Source: Candidatus Nomurabacteria bacterium | GTDB taxonomy: Bacteria; Patescibacteriota; Minisyncoccia; Phycocordibacterales; UBA5272 | DNA length: 64,000 nt | Reading direction: 5' to 3' | Assembly: GCA_028286645.1 (NCBI GenBank) | Contig: JAQBRF010000004.1 | Coordinates: 273,536-337,535, forward strand | Part shown: positions 429 to 52,284 of the stretch, one piece after another | Layout: each line of letters opens with the position of its first letter | Numbering within the stretch: position 1 is the first letter of the stretch | Notes under the pieces: model-generated | Databases searched by the model: none | The model's input: only the letters and a program-made list of their open reading frames with translations | Told to the model about the DNA's origin: nothing | Translations under genes and position numbers: made by a program

Positions 429-472
429 AACTTTTGAAGTGCGATACCCCTTTAACCACCAAGGAACCCATC

Positions 473-766
473 ATGAAGAAGACGACTCTTGCAATCCTCC
501 TGGCGTTGGCCCTCACGGCTATTTCGACCGCCGTCTCGTCGGCAGAAGTGCAGAATAAAAGCGCTGTGGTCATCAAGAATAAAAACAACGTGACGGTGAA
601 AGTGGTCAAGGTATTTGAGTTTGATTACGAGATGAAAGCTCCCGACACCGAAAGGACGGTAAACCAGTGGATCCGTGACAATCCCAACATCCTGATCACG
701 GAACAGTCGGTCGTCCGGACGAGCCCTTCTGGCTATGTCGTGGTGATTTGGTACACGCCGATGTAA
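473..766 (+). CDS. small secreted protein, GC-rich ORFan cassette A
   Basis: RBS AAGGAA lies 7 nt before ATG 473. The N-terminus MKKTTLAILLALALTAISTAVSSA is a signal peptide. G+C is much higher than the flanks. An intrinsic terminator follows. Confidence 0.55.
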   Translation: MKKTTLAILLALALTAISTAVSSAEVQNKSAVVIKNKNNVTVKVVKVFEFDYEMKAPDTERTVNQWIRDNPNILITEQSVVRTSPSGYVVVIWYTPM

Positions 767-10909: not shown

Positions 10910-11308
10910 ATGTGGAACGACCCTCGCCCCCTCATTATCGAAGATGGGGCATTGCTGGACGCTTTACTTCGCGAATGGAATTCGGACAAGGTGTCAGCAA
11001 AGATTGTTTTCCACCCTCCGCTTGATTGCTGGGTGACGGAATGGTTTGACGACGGGGGCGGTCATTCTGGAGCAATATGGGCCCGGCGTTCACCAGTGGA
11101 TCCACCCGTATTTAATCGAGCAAGGGAGCTCGGCTACGTCGTGGGGGCTCCTAAGCTGGGATATACCTCCGATACGGAGTTCATTCTGACAGAAAACCCC
11201 TACATTCTCGAGGAGATCCATCGCCTGACAAAAGAATGGAGGGAAAAGGATTTAGCCAATCAAAAAGCAAGGTACCGCGCGAAACACCCCGAGCTGGAGA
11301 CGGATTAG
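10910..11308 (+). CDS. hypothetical protein, GC-rich ORFan cassette B
   Basis: RBS AAAGGAG lies 8 nt upstream. Codon and G+C usage are unlike the neighbours. Followed by a hairpin plus T6. Confidence 0.5.
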   Translation: MWNDPRPLIIEDGALLDALLREWNSDKVSAKIVFHPPLDCWVTEWFDDGGGHSGAIWARRSPVDPPVFNRARELGYVVGAPKLGYTSDTEFILTENPYILEEIHRLTKEWREKDLANQKARYRAKHPELETD

Positions 11309-13606: not shown

Positions 13607-13812
13607 ATGGGAAGTATATCAGGTAGGATATGAAAGAAATTGGAACTCGGTTATATTTTCTTTATTCGGATTAAATTCTATAATCCACTCGATATCATAT
13701 TTATTTCTAAATATTTTAAGACACATCAGATAACTTGACTTTATAATAGCAGTGTGTTATACTATATAGGTACTCGTTCTGGCCAAATTTATTGTATCCC
13801 AAGGAGACCCTT

Positions 13813-14181
13813 ATGTCCCAACGCCGTATATTTGCAGTGGGTGACGGGGAAGTCATTCTCTCGGTACTCAGCATCACGAACGCTGGCGCCGCGGGTGAAG
13901 CCGTGGTGAAAGTCCGTGCGGAAGAAAAAAAAGAGGATGTCGCGATGCTTCTCACCTTCCAGGTGATGCTCGAAGCGACACCTCTCCGCCCCCTCGGCAT
14001 GCCGAGGGAGATCATGAAGAACAGGAAGACCAGAGCGGCTGCCGCTATCTTGAGCGCCGTCACGGTCGATGGTCCGGGATGCTTCTCGTTCAACGGTCTC
14101 GACTTTCTCAGGTGGGATTCGGACGGTGCGTGCTTTTACGTGCCCAGCCGGAACCACTGCGAAGCAACTCAGCTCCAATAG
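13813..14181 (+). CDS. hypothetical protein, GC-rich ORFan cassette C
   Basis: RBS AAGGAG lies 7 nt before ATG 13813, and an intrinsic terminator follows on the plus strand. Competing minus-strand ORFs lack these signals. Confidence 0.5.
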   Translation: MSQRRIFAVGDGEVILSVLSITNAGAAGEAVVKVRAEEKKEDVAMLLTFQVMLEATPLRPLGMPREIMKNRKTRAAAAILSAVTVDGPGCFSFNGLDFLRWDSDGACFYVPSRNHCEATQLQ

Positions 14182-14210
14182 TGAAAAATCGGCGTGCCTC
14201 GTGCCCGCCA

Positions 14211-14236
14211 CCCCGACTGAAGTCGGGGTTTTTTTA
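14211..14236 (+). terminator. intrinsic terminator (CCCCGAC-tgaa-GTCGGGG followed by T7)
   Basis: Perfect 7-bp GC stem plus TTTTTTT. Confidence 0.7.
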
Positions 14237-26635: not shown

Positions 26636-27169
26636 CTACTTATGACGATTCGGATCTGCGCCCTCACGCTGTTTGCGTATCTCTTCCAGGGCTGCCGTCT
26701 GGTTCTGAATGAGCAGACGATTCTGAATGAGAAGCTCTTGCATGAGCCCGTTGCCGGAGGGAGCCGGTGGGGCTATTCCGGTCACTTCCTTTGATTGAGG
26801 AGGCGGAACAGCAACAGTGCCGAGGTGTTCGATCTTGGTCAGGAAGTAATTTTCGCTGTCCGAGCGACACAACGTAACTGCTTCCTTCCGGTAATGGATC
26901 TTCACTTCTTGCTGCGTCTCCATGGCCTTTTGCACCTGTTGAGCGAGCTCCTCGCTCTCCACCGTGAAGTGAAATGCACTGCCCACCACGCCTGAGCCGG
27001 AGTTCAACCCTCCCCTGATGATCTCGCCTTCCCAGGTCTTGCAGAAAACGCCCGTCTTTTGCAACCGAGTGATAGACCCGATTTTCTCGCCCTCTCCCAT
27101 GTCCCAGCAACCGCCGAGAAACACGAGCATGAAGGAAGCTGCCAGATTCTTAATTAAACGAACTTTCAT
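26636..27169 (-). CDS. lipoprotein, GC-rich ORFan cassette F
   Basis: RBS AGGAGA lies 6 nt before the ATG. Signal peptide with lipobox LVFLGG-C. High G+C. Own terminator. Confidence 0.5.
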   Translation of the reverse strand: MKVRLIKNLAASFMLVFLGGCWDMGEGEKIGSITRLQKTGVFCKTWEGEIIRGGLNSGSGVVGSAFHFTVESEELAQQVQKAMETQQEVKIHYRKEAVTLCRSDSENYFLTKIEHLGTVAVPPPQSKEVTGIAPPAPSGNGLMQELLIQNRLLIQNQTAALEEIRKQREGADPNRHK

Positions 27170-36968: not shown

Positions 36969-37349
36969 ATGAATACGCAACGTAGCTGGTTCATGCCCTT
37001 CGCTATCACTGTCATCCTGCTCCTCTGTTCTCTCGGTTGGTTGACTATGGAACACGGAGCCAGAAAACTCGCGCAAACCCAGAAGGAGAGGGCCGAGCAG
37101 GACCTCAAATTCGCCCACGAAGACACGAAAGAGCGGGTCGAAAGCATCCGAGATGTGGTCATCGCCCACATGATCGAGGAATACGCCGCGGAAGAAGTGC
37201 GTGAGTGCAAGAAACTGCGATCTCCGCAAGACGAGAACTGCGTTATCGGTGCGAAAGCAAGCCAGCAGCATTTCGCTCAGAAACTCTGGGATGACATGCT
37301 GCGGCGCGCTTCCACCATTCAGTACAACAAGAACAGGAACGGACGTTAA
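36969..37349 (+). CDS. hypothetical membrane-anchored protein, GC-rich ORFan cassette G
   Basis: RBS ACAGGAGAC, N-terminal TM helix, high G+C, own terminator. Overlapping minus ORFs are rejected. Confidence 0.45.
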   Translation: MNTQRSWFMPFAITVILLLCSLGWLTMEHGARKLAQTQKERAEQDLKFAHEDTKERVESIRDVVIAHMIEEYAAEEVRECKKLRSPQDENCVIGAKASQQHFAQKLWDDMLRRASTIQYNKNRNGR

Positions 37350-37540: not shown

Positions 37541-37954
37541 ATGAATGCTTGCTCCTTTGTGCTCTTTGCAATGTTTCTTGCTTCTAACCTCGCCTATGCC
37601 GAGGAAGTTAAAGTAGGAGATTCCTTCCTCCTTCTCGAATGCTACGAAATACAGATGAAAAACACATTCCCCATCAGCAATAAAAACAGGACTTTCCAGC
37701 CTGGAGATAAATGCTTTATACAAAAGGATAGCAGAGTGACAGCTCTCGGCACCATAATTGCGACAGAAGAAATTTTTGCTCATTATCTGGTTACAGTTAC
37801 AACACAGGCAAAAGGAAACCTCTGTCCTAATCAAACTAATTTCGTGGTAGGCAACATCTGCCCTAGTCAAACCGTCTTCTTCGTAAGCAAGAGTAAATTT
37901 GCAGACATGAAGACTAAACCCATCGAAAGCCAAACTCACCTCAAGGTCCGGTGA
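37541..37954 (+). CDS. secreted protein, GC-rich ORFan cassette H
   Basis: RBS CCAGGAGACC, signal peptide MNACSFVLFAMFLASNLAYA, own terminator. Confidence 0.5.
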   Translation: MNACSFVLFAMFLASNLAYAEEVKVGDSFLLLECYEIQMKNTFPISNKNRTFQPGDKCFIQKDSRVTALGTIIATEEIFAHYLVTVTTQAKGNLCPNQTNFVVGNICPSQTVFFVSKSKFADMKTKPIESQTHLKVR

Positions 37955-39196: not shown

Positions 39197-39721
39197 TTAA
39201 GACGAAAGAAGACCCATCAGGTCAGGGAGTTCGCGCCCGCGAATTTTCTTCAGGAGAGCGGTCAAATCAATTGGCGTTTTCACCGACGTGATAATTTCTG
39301 AAGTGGTGTATGGAGCTTGTCCATCGTCCACGACCCCGATCTTGACCAGCCCCATTTCTTCGAGACGCTTGTATGCTTTATCGAAATGAAAGGCGGCCAT
39401 TCCAGGGTGGATAGCCTCCACCATATCTCTTAACCACCACAGATCCCTTCTTCGAAAAACGACGGTTCGGGCAGGGTTTCTTGAAAGTGCGATTTCGTCG
39501 ATATGGAGCCGCACGATCAACTCTTCGGTGGTCATGACGACGAAGGTGCGCTTCTGCACCACCTCTGCCCCATACTTGAGGAGCATGTCACGCTTCATTT
39601 GCTGGTCGTGAACTTTTTTCTCTTCGGCCAGTTCGTTGGCAAACAGGCGCTTGATGAGAGCGAAAACCTTGCGGCAATATTTCTGGGACCGCTTCTCAAT
39701 GAAACCTTGTAGCATTTTCAT
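39197..39721 (-). CDS. hypothetical protein, GC-rich ORFan cassette I
   Basis: 174-aa ORF in a G+C-rich block adjacent to the tRNA-Thr att-like repeat. No motif. Confidence 0.45.
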   Translation of the reverse strand: MKMLQGFIEKRSQKYCRKVFALIKRLFANELAEEKKVHDQQMKRDMLLKYGAEVVQKRTFVVMTTEELIVRLHIDEIALSRNPARTVVFRRRDLWWLRDMVEAIHPGMAAFHFDKAYKRLEEMGLVKIGVVDDGQAPYTTSEIITSVKTPIDLTALLKKIRGRELPDLMGLLSS

Positions 39722-39783
39722 ACTAAGACCTCCATGAACGGGTTACAGAGAATCTATCACTCAAAACTCTATACGTCAAACAA

Positions 39784-39804
39784 TTGAGCCGTTGAGCAGG
39801 ATTG
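39784..39804. repeat. 21-bp direct repeat TTGAGCCGTTGAGCAGGATTG (duplicate of the tRNA-Thr(GGU) 3' end, att-like)
   Basis: Exact match to 39945..39965, which is the 3'-terminal 18 nt of the tRNA plus 3 nt. The 140-bp spacer contains two perfect hairpins, GTTTCGCA-tgtt-TGCGAAAC and GTAAATGTGAA-gcag-TTCACATTTAC. Confidence 0.6.
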
Positions 39805-39947
39805 GTTACAAATTTCATGTCGTCGCCACTCCATGAATTCGCAACCCGCCGCTCGTGGTTTCGCATGTTTGCGAAACATCACTGCGCGCTTCAATCCTGT
39901 AAATGTGAAGCAGTTCACATTTACTCAAAATACACTTCGTGATTTTG

Positions 39948-40020
39948 AGCCGTTGAGCAGGATTGAACTGCTGACCTCGTCATTACCAATGACGTGCTCT
40001 ACCAACTGAGCTACAACGGC
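39948..40020 (-). tRNA. tRNA-Thr (anticodon GGU)
   Basis: GCCGTTG...GCTCAGTTGGTAGAGC...CGTCA-TTGGTAA-TGACG...AGCAG-TTCAATC-CTGCT-CAACGGC-T. Confidence 0.85.
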
Positions 40021-40111: not shown

Positions 40112-40804
40112 CTAATTACCTATCTTCCCTATTTTATTTTCTTTCTTCATTCTAAACTCGTCAATTAACTTATGATTGCCCGAAAGAAGAACCTTCGGGA
40201 CTTTATACTTTTTCTTATTAAATTCATAAACTTCTGGGCGCGCATACATTTCGTGAGATGCCATGCGAGTTTCTTCCAAAGAATTTTCATCATTTAACAC
40301 ACCTTTAACTTGGCGTGATATTACATCCATGCAAACCATTGCTGGAAGCTCTCCCCCTGTGAGGACATATTCTCCGATACTCCACTCTTTAGCTTTTAAA
40401 ATTTTCTTCACTCGAGCATCAATTCCTTCATAGCGTCCGCAGATGAAAATAATGTCAGTATATTTCTTGGCAGTTTCTTTGGCTATCTTATTATTAAACA
40501 TTGTTCCGCCAGGATTGAAAATAATAATTAAGACTTTAGACTTTAGATTTTTAACTTTTGATCTTTTTTCAATACTTTTTTGGATTTTTTCTACGCATCT
40601 TAAAATCGGATCAACCCACATAACCATTCCCGGACCTCCGCCATATGGACGTCCGTCCACTCGCCGGTGCTTATCTACTGTAAAGTCCCGGAGGGCATAT
40701 GTATCTATGGAAATTAACTTACTTTGAATCGCCCTGCTGATGATTGATTCAGCAAAGTAACTCTCAAACATATTAGGGAAAATGGTGACAACATGAAATC
40801 GCAT
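40112..40804 (-). CDS. trmD: tRNA (guanine37-N1)-methyltransferase
   Basis: MRFHVVTIFP...GRPYGGGPGMVM...FICGRYEGIDARV...EYVLTGGELPA, the TrmD SPOUT motifs. Confidence 0.9.
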   Translation of the reverse strand: MRFHVVTIFPNMFESYFAESIISRAIQSKLISIDTYALRDFTVDKHRRVDGRPYGGGPGMVMWVDPILRCVEKIQKSIEKRSKVKNLKSKVLIIIFNPGGTMFNNKIAKETAKKYTDIIFICGRYEGIDARVKKILKAKEWSIGEYVLTGGELPAMVCMDVISRQVKGVLNDENSLEETRMASHEMYARPEVYEFNKKKYKVPKVLLSGNHKLIDEFRMKKENKIGKIGN

Positions 40805-40864
40805 GCTTGACAGTATAACAAATATATTTTAGTATTTCAATTAACTTTTACCGGAGGACTTTCA

Positions 40865-41227
40865 ATGAGTGCCAGGATTATGTTCTTTTCGTTCCTGATC
40901 GCAGGAGTCCCGGCCTGGGGATTCGCATATCAAGGAAACGATATTGCTTTAGTCGCAATCGCGATCTTTACGACCAGCTGTGCCACCCTCTACCTACTCG
41001 CTCGTCACTTGGAAAAGGAGTCTGCCTTTGGCCCACTTTTCCCACGTGCCGCATTTGGCGCTATCATTCTCCCCATGACAATGGCAATGTTTATTGCAGC
41101 GGTGATTGCCTGGAAACATTGGCCCCAGGAAGCAATCTCAGGGAGCGTCATCAATCTTTTTTTAAGCATGGAAGGGCATCGATTAATTAACGGATGGAGA
41201 CTTTTCATTCCTGTAAAAGGGGAATAA
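40865..41227 (+). CDS. small four-TM membrane protein, GC-rich ORFan cassette J, inserted inside the rpsP-KH-trmD cluster
   Basis: RBS ACCGGAGGAC before ATG 40865, hydrophobic, G+C-rich, own strong terminator. It is opposite in strand to the surrounding operon. Confidence 0.45.
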   Translation: MSARIMFFSFLIAGVPAWGFAYQGNDIALVAIAIFTTSCATLYLLARHLEKESAFGPLFPRAAFGAIILPMTMAMFIAAVIAWKHWPQEAISGSVINLFLSMEGHRLINGWRLFIPVKGE

Positions 41228-41238
41228 AAACCCATCAA

Positions 41239-41268
41239 CGGGGTCGCTGAGCGACCCCGTTTTAATTT
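41239..41268 (+). terminator. intrinsic terminator (CGGGGTCGC-tga-GCGACCCCG followed by a T-run)
   Basis: Perfect 9-bp GC stem. Confidence 0.7.
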
Positions 41269-41295
41269 AATTTAATATAAAATATTTAATGAGAC

Positions 41296-41676
41296 TTATA
41301 TACCTTTTAGATCGTTCATTACAGAATCCACATCATCAGAATTATATTTCGGATACGACTGGCCGCCCTCCTCTTCTTTGCCTTCATTATTTCTGCCGCC
41401 TCCTTCACGAACTGGTCGATCCCCCGCCTCTCTTCCCTCTGGTTCATTTATTTTCAAATTCACTCGAGCATTATTTTTCATTCCCACAACTCGAAGAAGT
41501 GTTCTCAATGCCTTTGCCGTCGCGCCATCTCGTCCGATTATTTTCCCCATGTCTTCTCCTGCTACGTCCAAAGTTATCAAGACCCCCATTTCATCCACTC
41601 TTCTTTCTACCTTCACCTTATCTGGATTATCTACCAAAACCTTTACAACATATTCAACAAATTCTTGATCTTTCAT
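41296..41676 (-). CDS. KH-domain RNA-binding protein (YlqC-like, rpsP-associated) with a Gly/Glu-rich tail
   Basis: MGKIIGRDGATAKALRTLL is the KH GXXG loop context. Positioned after rpsP as in many bacteria. Confidence 0.7.
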   Translation of the reverse strand: MKDQEFVEYVVKVLVDNPDKVKVERRVDEMGVLITLDVAGEDMGKIIGRDGATAKALRTLLRVVGMKNNARVNLKINEPEGREAGDRPVREGGGRNNEGKEEEGGQSYPKYNSDDVDSVMNDLKGI

Positions 41677-41786
41677 ATATTTTATTTAGTGTAATTTCAG
41701 TTTAACAACCCCTCTTAATTATATAAAATAGTTATGCACATTGGAACAATATAAAATTCCCCAAGTTTGCTTGAGGAAGTTTATAT

Positions 41787-42086
41787 TTAAGCAGCTTTTT
41801 CTTCTTTTTTCACTGGGGACTTCCTTGGAAGTACATTCTTCTTCTTTCCTTCGATAATACCTTTGGATATTAGAAGGTTATGGACAGTAGGACTGGTCTG
41901 AGCTCCTACAGACATCCAGTGCTTTACTCGGTCAGCTTTCGCTTCAAAGACCCCGGCCTTAACATTATATGTTCCAATAATTTCTGAAAATTGAGTGGTT
42001 TTAGGCTTAAGAGTACTCTCACCAACTATTAGGCGAAAATATGGGTCGTTCTTTCTTCCAGTCCTTTGTAATCTGATTTTTAACAT
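41787..42086 (-). CDS. rpsP: 30S ribosomal protein S16
   Basis: MLKIRLQRTGRKNDPYFRLIV..., the canonical S16 N-terminus. Confidence 0.9.
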   Translation of the reverse strand: MLKIRLQRTGRKNDPYFRLIVGESTLKPKTTQFSEIIGTYNVKAGVFEAKADRVKHWMSVGAQTSPTVHNLLISKGIIEGKKKNVLPRKSPVKKEEKAA

Positions 42087-42131
42087 GTGCTCTATTCTAA
42101 CATAAATCTTAAAAAATGTGAATAGGAACCC

Positions 42132-44069: not shown

Positions 44070-44182
44070 ATATGTATTTACTATACCATAACTTTACATA
44101 TTATTTAATTTCATGTAGAACTAGGTTACTCGTTGGCGTTGTGCCGCGAGAATTAAAGGGGTCTTGGCCCCAAGGAGTTCTT

Positions 44183-44608
44183 GTGAAAATTACTTCGTAT
44201 GTCGGTGACACTACAACCCAAAGCGGAATCGTAGGGGCTTTAAAGGATAGCACATTGAATACAGCCCATGCGGGGCTGACAATGGGATACAACCAGCTAT
44301 CTGAAAAAATAAAAAAGATGGTGCAGCATTGCTCCATTTCGCCGTATGTGGCAAACGCAGCAAATTACCGCGCCACATGCTCTATAAAGGTAAAGCTTTT
44401 GTATATGGCCGGTTTACCTGGAGCAATCATAAAAAGGGAGCCTGAGGTTGACTTCGGCTTGGCTCAAGAGGAGGTGTCCGAAGAAAGGGTCGCGGCGGAG
44501 TTCAAGAGAGCTGTAGAGTCTGTCCTTCAATGTGAGATAGATGCTCACCGCCGGAATGGTGATACGTTATTCATCGACCTGCATGGCGTCCAGCAATTGG
44601 CTTCTTAA
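44183..44608 (+). CDS. hypothetical protein, GC-rich ORFan cassette K (GTG start preceded by AAGGAG; the track ORF begins at 44072)
   Basis: G+C-rich from about 44140. RBS AAGGAG lies 5 nt before an in-frame GTG. Own terminator. Confidence 0.4.
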   Translation: MKITSYVGDTTTQSGIVGALKDSTLNTAHAGLTMGYNQLSEKIKKMVQHCSISPYVANAANYRATCSIKVKLLYMAGLPGAIIKREPEVDFGLAQEEVSEERVAAEFKRAVESVLQCEIDAHRRNGDTLFIDLHGVQQLAS

Positions 44609-51889: not shown

Positions 51890-51990
51890 TTCACTACTCT
51901 ACCATAAATATCAATTCTTCTAAGAGCCATATTTACAAATCATCTTAGTGGGTATAGGATTAAATAAAGACTTTCAACGTGGAGGGAATC

Positions 51991-52284
51991 ATGAAAACTT
52001 GCTCATTTGCAATACTGGTGGCCGTACTCCTTTCTGTCTCCCCAAGCGCTTCGGCACAACATCGCGGGTTTCGTCATGGCGGCCCTCCGGTGGTTTTTTC
52101 AGTCCCAGGTCCGGTTTATTATGGGCCTCCTGTATATATAGCTCCCGCGCCGGTTTACTACGGTCCGCCCATCTACATGGCTCCGCCCCCCAGGAGACAA
52201 TATATTGAAATTGCACCCGTTTGCCGAGATGTATACATCGGTACAGATCAGTGGGGGAAAGATCACTTCGATCACAGCTGCTGA
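51991..52284 (+). CDS. secreted Pro/Tyr-rich small protein, GC-rich ORFan cassette L
   Basis: RBS GGAGGG lies 5 nt before ATG 51991. Signal peptide MKTCSFAILVAVLLSVSPSASA. Repeats PVYYGPPVYIAPAPVYYGPPIYMAPPP. Own terminator. Confidence 0.5.
   Translation: MKTCSFAILVAVLLSVSPSASAQHRGFRHGGPPVVFSVPGPVYYGPPVYIAPAPVYYGPPIYMAPPPRRQYIEIAPVCRDVYIGTDQWGKDHFDHSC

Follow-up and report, generated by a model that had tools for sequence, protein, structure and literature searches.

In a 64,000-nucleotide stretch of the genome of a Candidatus Nomurabacteria bacterium (hereafter the window; GC content 37.6%), a small plus-strand gene, designated ORF120 after its 120-codon open reading frame (ORF; 40865–41227), was found between khpA and trmD, two minus-strand genes that follow rpsP in this order. 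Comparison with related genomes indicated that ORF120 is probably a lineage-specific accessory gene lying in a flexible islet, which has neither replaced rimM nor broken an operon. The explanation that we favour, and hold to be moderately probable, is that ORF120 occupies a slot between rpsP-khpA and trmD, which would be transcribed separately, and that its GC-rich allele was imported through the flanking genes. According to this explanation, rpsP-khpA would form one unit ending at a hairpin terminator, and trmD would form a second unit read from its own extended −10 promoter as a leaderless mRNA. ORF120 would be expressed from its own sigma-70-like promoter, Shine–Dalgarno site and intrinsic terminator to give a small membrane protein, with its antisense promoter interleaved with that of trmD. 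Since the cargo would sit between the khpA terminator and the trmD promoter, no operon would be interrupted, which would also explain why relatives carry different small genes at this position.

ORF120, its signals and its protein family

ORF120 is publicly recorded as the hypothetical protein JWN37_739 (NCBI) on a 514-kb contig of a Candidatus Nomurabacteria metagenome-assembled genome, and both of its junctions were reproduced in an independent Logan assembly of run SRR13312974. The initial annotation had described a GC-rich plus-strand ORF of 120 amino acids (aa) between the KH gene and trmD, equipped with its own ribosome-binding site, and these features were borne out. The sequence has a GGAGGA Shine–Dalgarno site at 40853–40858 on the plus strand, with 6 nt between it and the ATG. 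ORF120 has a GC content of 0.48, compared with 0.376 in the window as a whole, and a GC content at third codon positions (GC3) of 0.50, compared with a window median of 0.32 and values of 0.33–0.35 in the neighbouring genes; only 3.4% of 363-bp windows were equally GC-rich. Downstream, a GC-rich hairpin (41237–41261) separates the convergent ORF120 and khpA, and equivalent hairpins are present in the related loci L040 and L067. The terminator-like hairpin had been reported with a 9-bp stem; the hairpin itself is there, although its stem measures 11 bp (8 G-C pairs), with a 3-nt loop, a folding energy of −20.5 kcal/mol and z = −6.1. The T-run comes directly after the hairpin on the plus strand, whereas on the minus strand 6 nt intervene, and the structure probably serves as a bidirectional intrinsic terminator.

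It is scarcely credible that the ORF is spurious and that the GC-rich stretch is instead non-coding, for example a structured RNA. Long ORFs do arise by chance where DNA is GC-rich in an otherwise AT-rich genome; a 77-codon ORF runs on the opposite strand, and other GC-rich patches bear long ORFs on both strands. However, an ORF of at least 120 codons arose in only 26 of 5000 shuffles (0.5%) of the 491-bp khpA–trmD gap, the Shine–Dalgarno site is correctly spaced, no Rfam match was obtained here at gathering thresholds, and conservation across the three orthologues described below is at the protein level, not at the DNA level. ORF120 is a genuine, self-contained gene of atypical composition.

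The ORF120 family is tiny, fast-evolving and restricted to the clade, with three known members of 117–128 aa, namely P0001 (ORF120), P0002 and P0004. A word-indexed protein search with ORF120 returned ORF120 itself as the sole match. An exhaustive HMMER search of 1.84 billion representatives recovered P0002 (117 aa; 35% identical over its full length, E = 1.6e-15), while the other match, P0003, was discarded as a repetitive false positive. The third member (128 aa) was spotted by eye in the gap of L040 and later recovered as P0004 in a search with the ORF120-family profile, which gave no further new members; it shares 30% identity with P0002 over 93 aa (E = 3e-8). Profile-guided scans of metagenome and viral contigs yielded no additional members, and a six-frame profile search of the gaps of other relatives revealed no remnants of the family. 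In each of the six contigs in which P0002 was recovered (L067–L072), its gene lies between trmD and khpA and runs on the opposite strand; these contigs are identical over 1.55 kb and are therefore uninformative on selection. P0004 in L040 is likewise encoded antisense, convergent with khpA and separated from it by a hairpin.

The three-member alignment (A1) contains 17 invariant columns; some of these fall in helix 1, and nine are clustered within the final 18 residues, where the members have in common the C-terminal motif E-G-x-R-x-x-N-x-W-[KR]-L-F-[IL]-P. The hydropathy profile of ORF120 displays three strong segments and one weaker one, and AlphaFold2, run on the three-member alignment, predicted four helices with a predicted local distance difference test score (pLDDT) of 83.5 and a predicted template modelling score (pTM) of 0.72, in agreement with the earlier description of a protein with four transmembrane (TM) helices. 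From the charged residues and the positive-inside rule, both termini would be cytoplasmic. Helix 1 contains no membrane-embedded acidic residue, and no polar cluster points to transport or catalysis. As a low-confidence guess from these sequence features, ORF120 may be a non-catalytic envelope or adaptor protein acting through its conserved, presumably cytoplasmic C-terminal segment.

Several specific functions were considered and rejected. The Joint Genome Institute (JGI) labels P0002 a phosphatidylserine synthase, without domain support. The resemblance consists in being a membrane protein and in a weak 14-bit NCBIfam match to the N-terminal membrane region of ClsA, whereas ORF120-family proteins have about half the length of the enzyme. 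Neither PF01066 nor the CDP-alcohol phosphatidyltransferase motif D-G-x2-A-R...G-x3-D-x3-D was found in any of the three members, and the label looks like an annotation artefact. A small multidrug resistance (SMR) transporter of the EmrE type was discarded, as there is no match to Pfam Multi_Drug_Res and helix 1 (residues 3–22) lacks Glu. Regarding a phage holin, only P0004 gave a PHROG holin match, which was non-significant (E = 0.034), and the neighbours are trmD and khpA. None of the three members matched the PADLOC anti-phage defence models. The likeness to holins, SMR transporters and immunity proteins against pore formers is generic (117–128 aa, three to four TM helices, a short charged C-terminus and fast evolution), and the family differs from all of them in having no significant family match and no lysin or toxin gene among its immediate neighbours.

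Predicted transcription units around trmD

The minus-strand genes flanking ORF120 had been named as rpsP, a KH gene and trmD, and family profiles confirmed both their identities and their coordinates. The genes rpsP (ribosomal protein S16; 41787–42086; TIGR00002, 62.6 bits), khpA (a KH-domain RNA-binding protein with a long Gly/Glu/Arg-rich C-terminal tail; 41296–41676; PF13083, 79.4 bits) and trmD (tRNA (m1G37) methyltransferase; 40112–40804; NF000648, 234.6 bits) each scored above the curated family thresholds in Pfam and NCBIfam scans. KhpA comprises 126 aa, and its KH domain covers the full 73-position Pfam KH_KhpA-B model. Its tail, encoded by the 3′ part of the gene (41296–41450), consists of about 50 residues rich in Gly, Glu, Arg and Asn and differs in length among relatives.

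The classical trmD operon has the order rpsP-rimM-trmD-rplS in E. coli and rpsP-khpA(ylqC)-ylqD-rimM-trmD-rplS in Bacillus-type genomes. In the outgroup loci from outside the candidate phyla radiation (CPR; L059, L062 and L066), the order rpsP-khpA-rimM-trmD was found, with rplS after trmD in L059 and L066. A RimM profile was built from the outgroup ORFs lying between khpA and trmD, one source protein of which was confirmed as RimM by Pfam. This profile matched the outgroups only, with no match in the 64-kb window or around trmD in about 75 CPR loci. Likewise, a profile of L19 (rplS) matched only the outgroups and found nothing in the window or near trmD in the CPR loci. The absence of rimM is an already-known CPR-wide trait, since two papers report that most, or nearly all, CPR genomes lack the gene (PMC6744442, PMC12641178). 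The initial annotation was right that rimM is absent here; its further point, that ORF120 lies in the usual place of rimM, loses its meaning in a clade in which rimM is missing from this position in all of the roughly 75 relatives examined. ORF120 does not stand in for rimM, and rimM was not displaced.

The locus resembles the classical operon in that rpsP, khpA and trmD keep their adjacency, order and orientation. It differs in the absence of rimM and rplS from the locus throughout the clade, and in predicted hairpin terminators after rpsP and khpA and −10 boxes located 7 nt before the ATGs of trmD and rpsP. The predicted trmD promoter (40805–40840, minus strand) is composed of a −35 box TTGAAA (40840–40835) and an extended −10 box TGtTATACT (40820–40812) 7 nt before the ATG, a distance implying a leaderless trmD mRNA. 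The predicted rpsP promoter (42094–42122, minus strand) consists of TTCACA, a 17-nt spacer and TAGAAT with an upstream TG; its −10 box also ends 7 nt before the ATG, and this spacing (TGtTAGAAT, 7 nt, ATG) fits a leaderless transcript. A terminator-like hairpin with a T-run is situated between rpsP and khpA (41757–41778, minus strand).

Such signals recur in relatives with a short gap between khpA and trmD. A genome scan located both genes in 53 relatives, about 25 of which have them 0–131 bp apart. A hairpin with a T-run follows khpA in 16 of the 23 relatives with gaps of 44–131 bp, and in 34 of the 53 overall. Most relatives with more than 70% TrmD identity have the sequence TGnTAtAcTGTCAAGT immediately before the trmD ATG, as a single copy in each locus. 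It can be read as a −10 box with a TG extension, placed 7 nt from the ATG in the geometry predicted for leaderless starts. The presence of the hairpin and the trmD −10 box in short-gap relatives suggests that trmD was probably uncoupled from rpsP-khpA before any insertion, and in this clade rpsP, khpA and trmD probably do not form one operon, whether cargo is present or not. The proposal that the insertion uncouples trmD from rpsP consequently appears unlikely, the short-gap relatives mostly having the hairpin after khpA and most of the closer ones also the trmD −10 box. The seven bases between the trmD −10 box and the ATG (within 40805–40820, and at the same place in L002–L043) are conserved beyond what a promoter by itself would require, which suggests a trmD-specific regulatory element.

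The geometry of the trmD and rpsP starts extends to other genes of the window. Of the 65 window genes, 21 have a TAnnnT hexamer ending exactly 6 nt upstream of the ATG, and in 17 of these it is preceded by a TG; at other offsets the count is about 3. A Shine–Dalgarno site was scored in only 9 of the 65. Many native genes of the window accordingly look leaderless from their upstream sequences; examples of starts of this type are those at 42086 (rpsP), 40804 (trmD), 4626, 2906, 9940 and 9996 (10550 side). A full-text literature search found no paper describing a leaderless pattern for CPR. An anti-Shine–Dalgarno motif has been detected in only 48% of Parcubacteria (PMC9297842).

The khpA–trmD gap as a variable slot

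The alignment to related genomes showed that the rpsP-khpA-trmD neighbourhood is kept, with rimM absent from it in the CPR relatives and variable content in the khpA–trmD gap. Gaps range from 0 to 2478 bp, and about half of the relatives have 230–2478 bp between the two genes. The spacing of 0–130 bp in deeper and many close relatives agrees with the earlier view of ORF120 as a self-contained gene that is extra with respect to the probable ancestral state. By contrast, the notion that an antisense, terminator-bearing insertion is unusual here was contradicted, as about half of the relatives hold other small genes in the gap, often antisense. The initial annotation had also considered whether the same gene might stand at this position in all relatives with native composition; two other lineages do carry it in this way, which speaks in part against that annotation's reading, and most relatives do not have the gene.

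The ORFs of this slot belong to at least five unrelated small-gene families, often antisense, and mostly occur as one gene of 50–160 codons. Besides the ORF120 family (family 1), a second family, present in at least four relatives (L002, L019, L018 and L027), comprises antisense genes for soluble, probably helical proteins of 77–113 aa with the motif ...AFNICLLEP.N...; the L002 member, the sole one scanned, had no Pfam match. A third family (L016, L024 and L047) encodes two-helix proteins of 52–54 aa with a glycine-zipper-like GKGIAV.SIWVG... segment, antisense and about 60–250 nt upstream of trmD, and a fourth (L017 and L025) encodes proteins of 4–5 helices on the trmD strand. Several singletons complete the slot, including genes for membrane, secreted and lipoprotein-like products. 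The DNA that the window has in common with other loci is confined to the last 25–60 nt before trmD; with L040, the region upstream of ORF120 shares 79% identity over 61 nt.

This conserved segment contains the predicted ORF120 promoter (40807–40835, plus strand), recognised by consensus and comparison and composed of TTGACA (40807–40812), a 17-nt spacer and TAGTAT (40830–40835). The −35 box is the reverse complement of a conserved TGTCAA downstream of the trmD −10 box. Moreover, the trmD −10 hexamer (40812–40817) abuts the antisense −35 box, and the trmD −35 box (40835–40840) abuts the antisense −10 box. Of 21 long-gap loci, 16 have an antisense TAnnnT 16–18 nt past TTGACA, whereas none of 17 short-gap loci does (Fisher p = 1e-6), and in most long-gap loci this −10 box is followed by a Shine–Dalgarno site and a start codon. 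Because the two predicted promoters are interleaved, those of ORF120 and trmD would compete for RNA polymerase. Overlapping divergent (bidirectional) promoters are a known general concept in bacteria, and the present arrangement corresponds to it in having two divergent predicted promoters within one stretch of about 36 bp (40805–40840), with predicted starts about 38 bp apart. It departs from it in that each −35 box abuts the −10 box of the other promoter, with no symmetric common −10 box, and in that the antisense −10 box occurs only where cargo is present.

It is conceivable, though quite improbable in our estimate, that the slot is a natural expression platform, in which the invariant TGTCAA would double as an antisense −35 box, the bidirectional terminator would close the unit, and small genes would repeatedly have been captured or have originated. 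If so, RNA polymerase could sit on only one of the two promoters at a time, and cargo expression would be inversely coupled to that of trmD and hence to m1G37 tRNA methylation; the products of the slot would be small, mostly membrane or secreted proteins.

To a birth of ORF120 and the other slot families de novo, in a terminator-bounded spacer transcribed from the antisense promoter, we assign very little probability. The presence of at least five unrelated families, the conserved frame of promoter and terminator, and the lack of any homologue of the ORF120 family elsewhere among 5.8 billion proteins would agree with such an origin. Nevertheless, none of the relatives has non-coding gap DNA resembling ORF120, the antisense −10 box is absent from the empty slots (0 of 17), a GC-rich coding sequence is hard to obtain from an AT-rich spacer, and three diverged orthologues denote an old gene rather than a new one.

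In the reading suggested by the initial annotation, a foreign GC-rich cassette would be a recent arrival at the rimM position of a ribosome-biogenesis operon, where it would now split trmD from rpsP transcription. Its GC content of 0.48 and GC3 of 0.50 against a native GC3 of 0.32, a Shine–Dalgarno site of its own, unlike the mostly leaderless native genes, and the absence of ORF120 from most relatives are what such an entry would leave. We nonetheless regard it as highly unlikely, as rimM is absent clade-wide, the terminator and the trmD promoter are predicted in cargo-free relatives as well, orthologues of native composition occupy the same slot in two other lineages, and the promoter region upstream of ORF120 is itself native and conserved (the 61 nt shared with L040).

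The slot is better compared with flexible genomic islets, in which variable accessory cargo between conserved core genes is exchanged by recombination in the flanks. The likeness lies in the conserved flanks, the variable content with several unrelated cargo families and the atypical composition of this copy. The khpA–trmD slot differs in being very small and in being bounded by a predicted terminator and promoter, not by tRNA genes or integrase sites; exchange by recombination is presumed here.

Variation was also observed on both sides of the cluster. A tRNA-Thr(GGT) gene (39947–40020) lies directly downstream of trmD, and beyond it is the GC-rich ORF174 (region 39197–40020), which is missing in relatives and had no homologue in the protein database. 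In some relatives, a PGA_cap gene is found about 250 bp after trmD. The region beside the tRNA gene may be a second variable slot, and no integrase gene is evident there. Upstream, the rnr–rpsP gap is highly variable in relatives, from about 60 bp to about 5 kb (for instance in L006, L009, L016, L024, L025, L030 and L067), and in L067 it holds two histidine-kinase/response-regulator pairs. This suggests that slots of variable content are a common feature between the core genes of the clade.

Origin of the GC-rich allele and its significance

The GC-rich composition is specific to the copy in this genome, the two orthologues being native in composition. The P0002 gene has a GC content of 0.387 and a GC3 of 0.305 in a locus of 0.405, and the L040 ORF has 0.34 in a locus of 0.345. 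The shift of ORF120 extends to the second codon position and to the amino acid content, with Gly, Ala, Arg and Pro accounting for 0.317 of its residues versus 0.248 and 0.188 in the orthologues, which suggests long residence in a GC-richer genome. The ORF120 allele would thus have resided for long in a GC-richer, unsampled relative and then have been brought in by recombination in khpA and trmD, the conserved genes on either side. With orthologues in the same slot, this is the most economical account of the allele, and we hold it loosely.

ORF120 is one of about ten small GC-rich ORFs in the window, with GC contents of 0.46–0.58. The others include 434–766(+), 10910–11308(+), 26636–27169(−), 36969–37349(+), 37541–37954(+), 39197–39721(−), 44072–44608(+) and 51979–52284(+), and the roughly nine ORFs besides ORF120 have a GC3 of 0.46–0.71. 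Those scanned matched no Pfam or PHROG family. Most have their own promoter-like boxes, a Shine–Dalgarno site and a GC hairpin, and several encode a signal peptide or a lipoprotein box. As judged by reading the upstream sequences, a strong Shine–Dalgarno site precedes 8 of the 10, and GC-rich islets account for 6 of the 9 window genes in which such a site was scored, in contrast to the native genes, which are mostly of the leaderless type. The islets show no mutual similarity at the protein or DNA level. A common origin was rejected on this ground, and none but ORF120 has a homologue in the loci of relatives. The GC-richest patch (13789–14211; 0.58) bears ORFs of 125–140 codons on both strands; a hairpin coincides with the presumed start of one of these ORFs, and the patch gave no credible Rfam match.

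Inheritance within the slot since the common ancestor of the carriers, with loss or replacement in most other lineages and a local rise in GC by an unspecified mechanism, seems to us rather unlikely. The same slot and orientation in three non-monophyletic lineages speak for it, as does the very high divergence of the ORF120 family (35% and 22% identity) while TrmD remains at 71–76%. Yet the rise in GC is limited to about ten small genes, leaves the neighbouring native genes unaffected and includes second codon positions and amino acids, and it has no known mechanism in a genome of 37.6% GC.

Nor does a mobile element provide a convincing origin. The compactness, the atypical composition and the terminal hairpin could recall an insertion sequence (IS) or miniature inverted-repeat transposable element (MITE), an integron cassette or a phage remnant, and we consider each of these extremely improbable. 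No terminal inverted repeats or target-site duplication were found, just short, chance-like repeats of 75–91% identity around 40600–41500. The hairpin has a perfect 11-bp stem, a 3-nt loop and a T-run, without attC-type features, and the gene stands singly between core genes. There was no phage DNA match, no convincing PHROG match and, in viral contigs, no member of the family; the immediate neighbourhood has no ORF called as a transposase or integrase, and the ten GC-rich islets are dissimilar in sequence.

Several observations weigh against the import of an accessory allele into a slot between separate units. The protein, metagenome and viral-contig searches found no GC-rich donor allele. 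The closest relative available, with about 81% TrmD identity, is too distant for a before-and-after comparison, and a second metagenome scan with TrmD gave nothing above 79% identity. The three carriers were not monophyletic in a weak neighbour-joining tree (557 columns), which leaves two histories indistinguishable, namely vertical inheritance with numerous losses and exchange between relatives. Termination after khpA may be leaky, because the minus-strand T-run begins only 6 nt after the hairpin, and the promoter, terminator and leaderless assignments derive from sequence consensus and conservation. Finally, the family obtained nothing significant in Pfam (E ≤ 0.1 for ORF120; E ≤ 1 for P0002 and P0004), NCBIfam, PHROGs, PADLOC, PDB sequences or a Foldseek comparison with the PDB.

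The main value of these results is corrective, as an apparent antisense insertion into an operon becomes an accessory gene between units that were probably already independent. The more interesting by-products would be the leaderless architecture, the GC-rich accessory genes led by Shine–Dalgarno sites and the interleaved promoters. In this clade, the classical trmD operon has seemingly been dismantled into single genes, each with a promoter placed as if for a leaderless mRNA, and the accessory genes would differ from these by composition and by Shine–Dalgarno-led initiation. One short intergenic slot has seen a rapid turnover of tiny genes, often for membrane proteins. Together, these features may help to show how CPR genomes, which are reduced and probably symbiotic, gain and express envelope proteins specific to their lineages.

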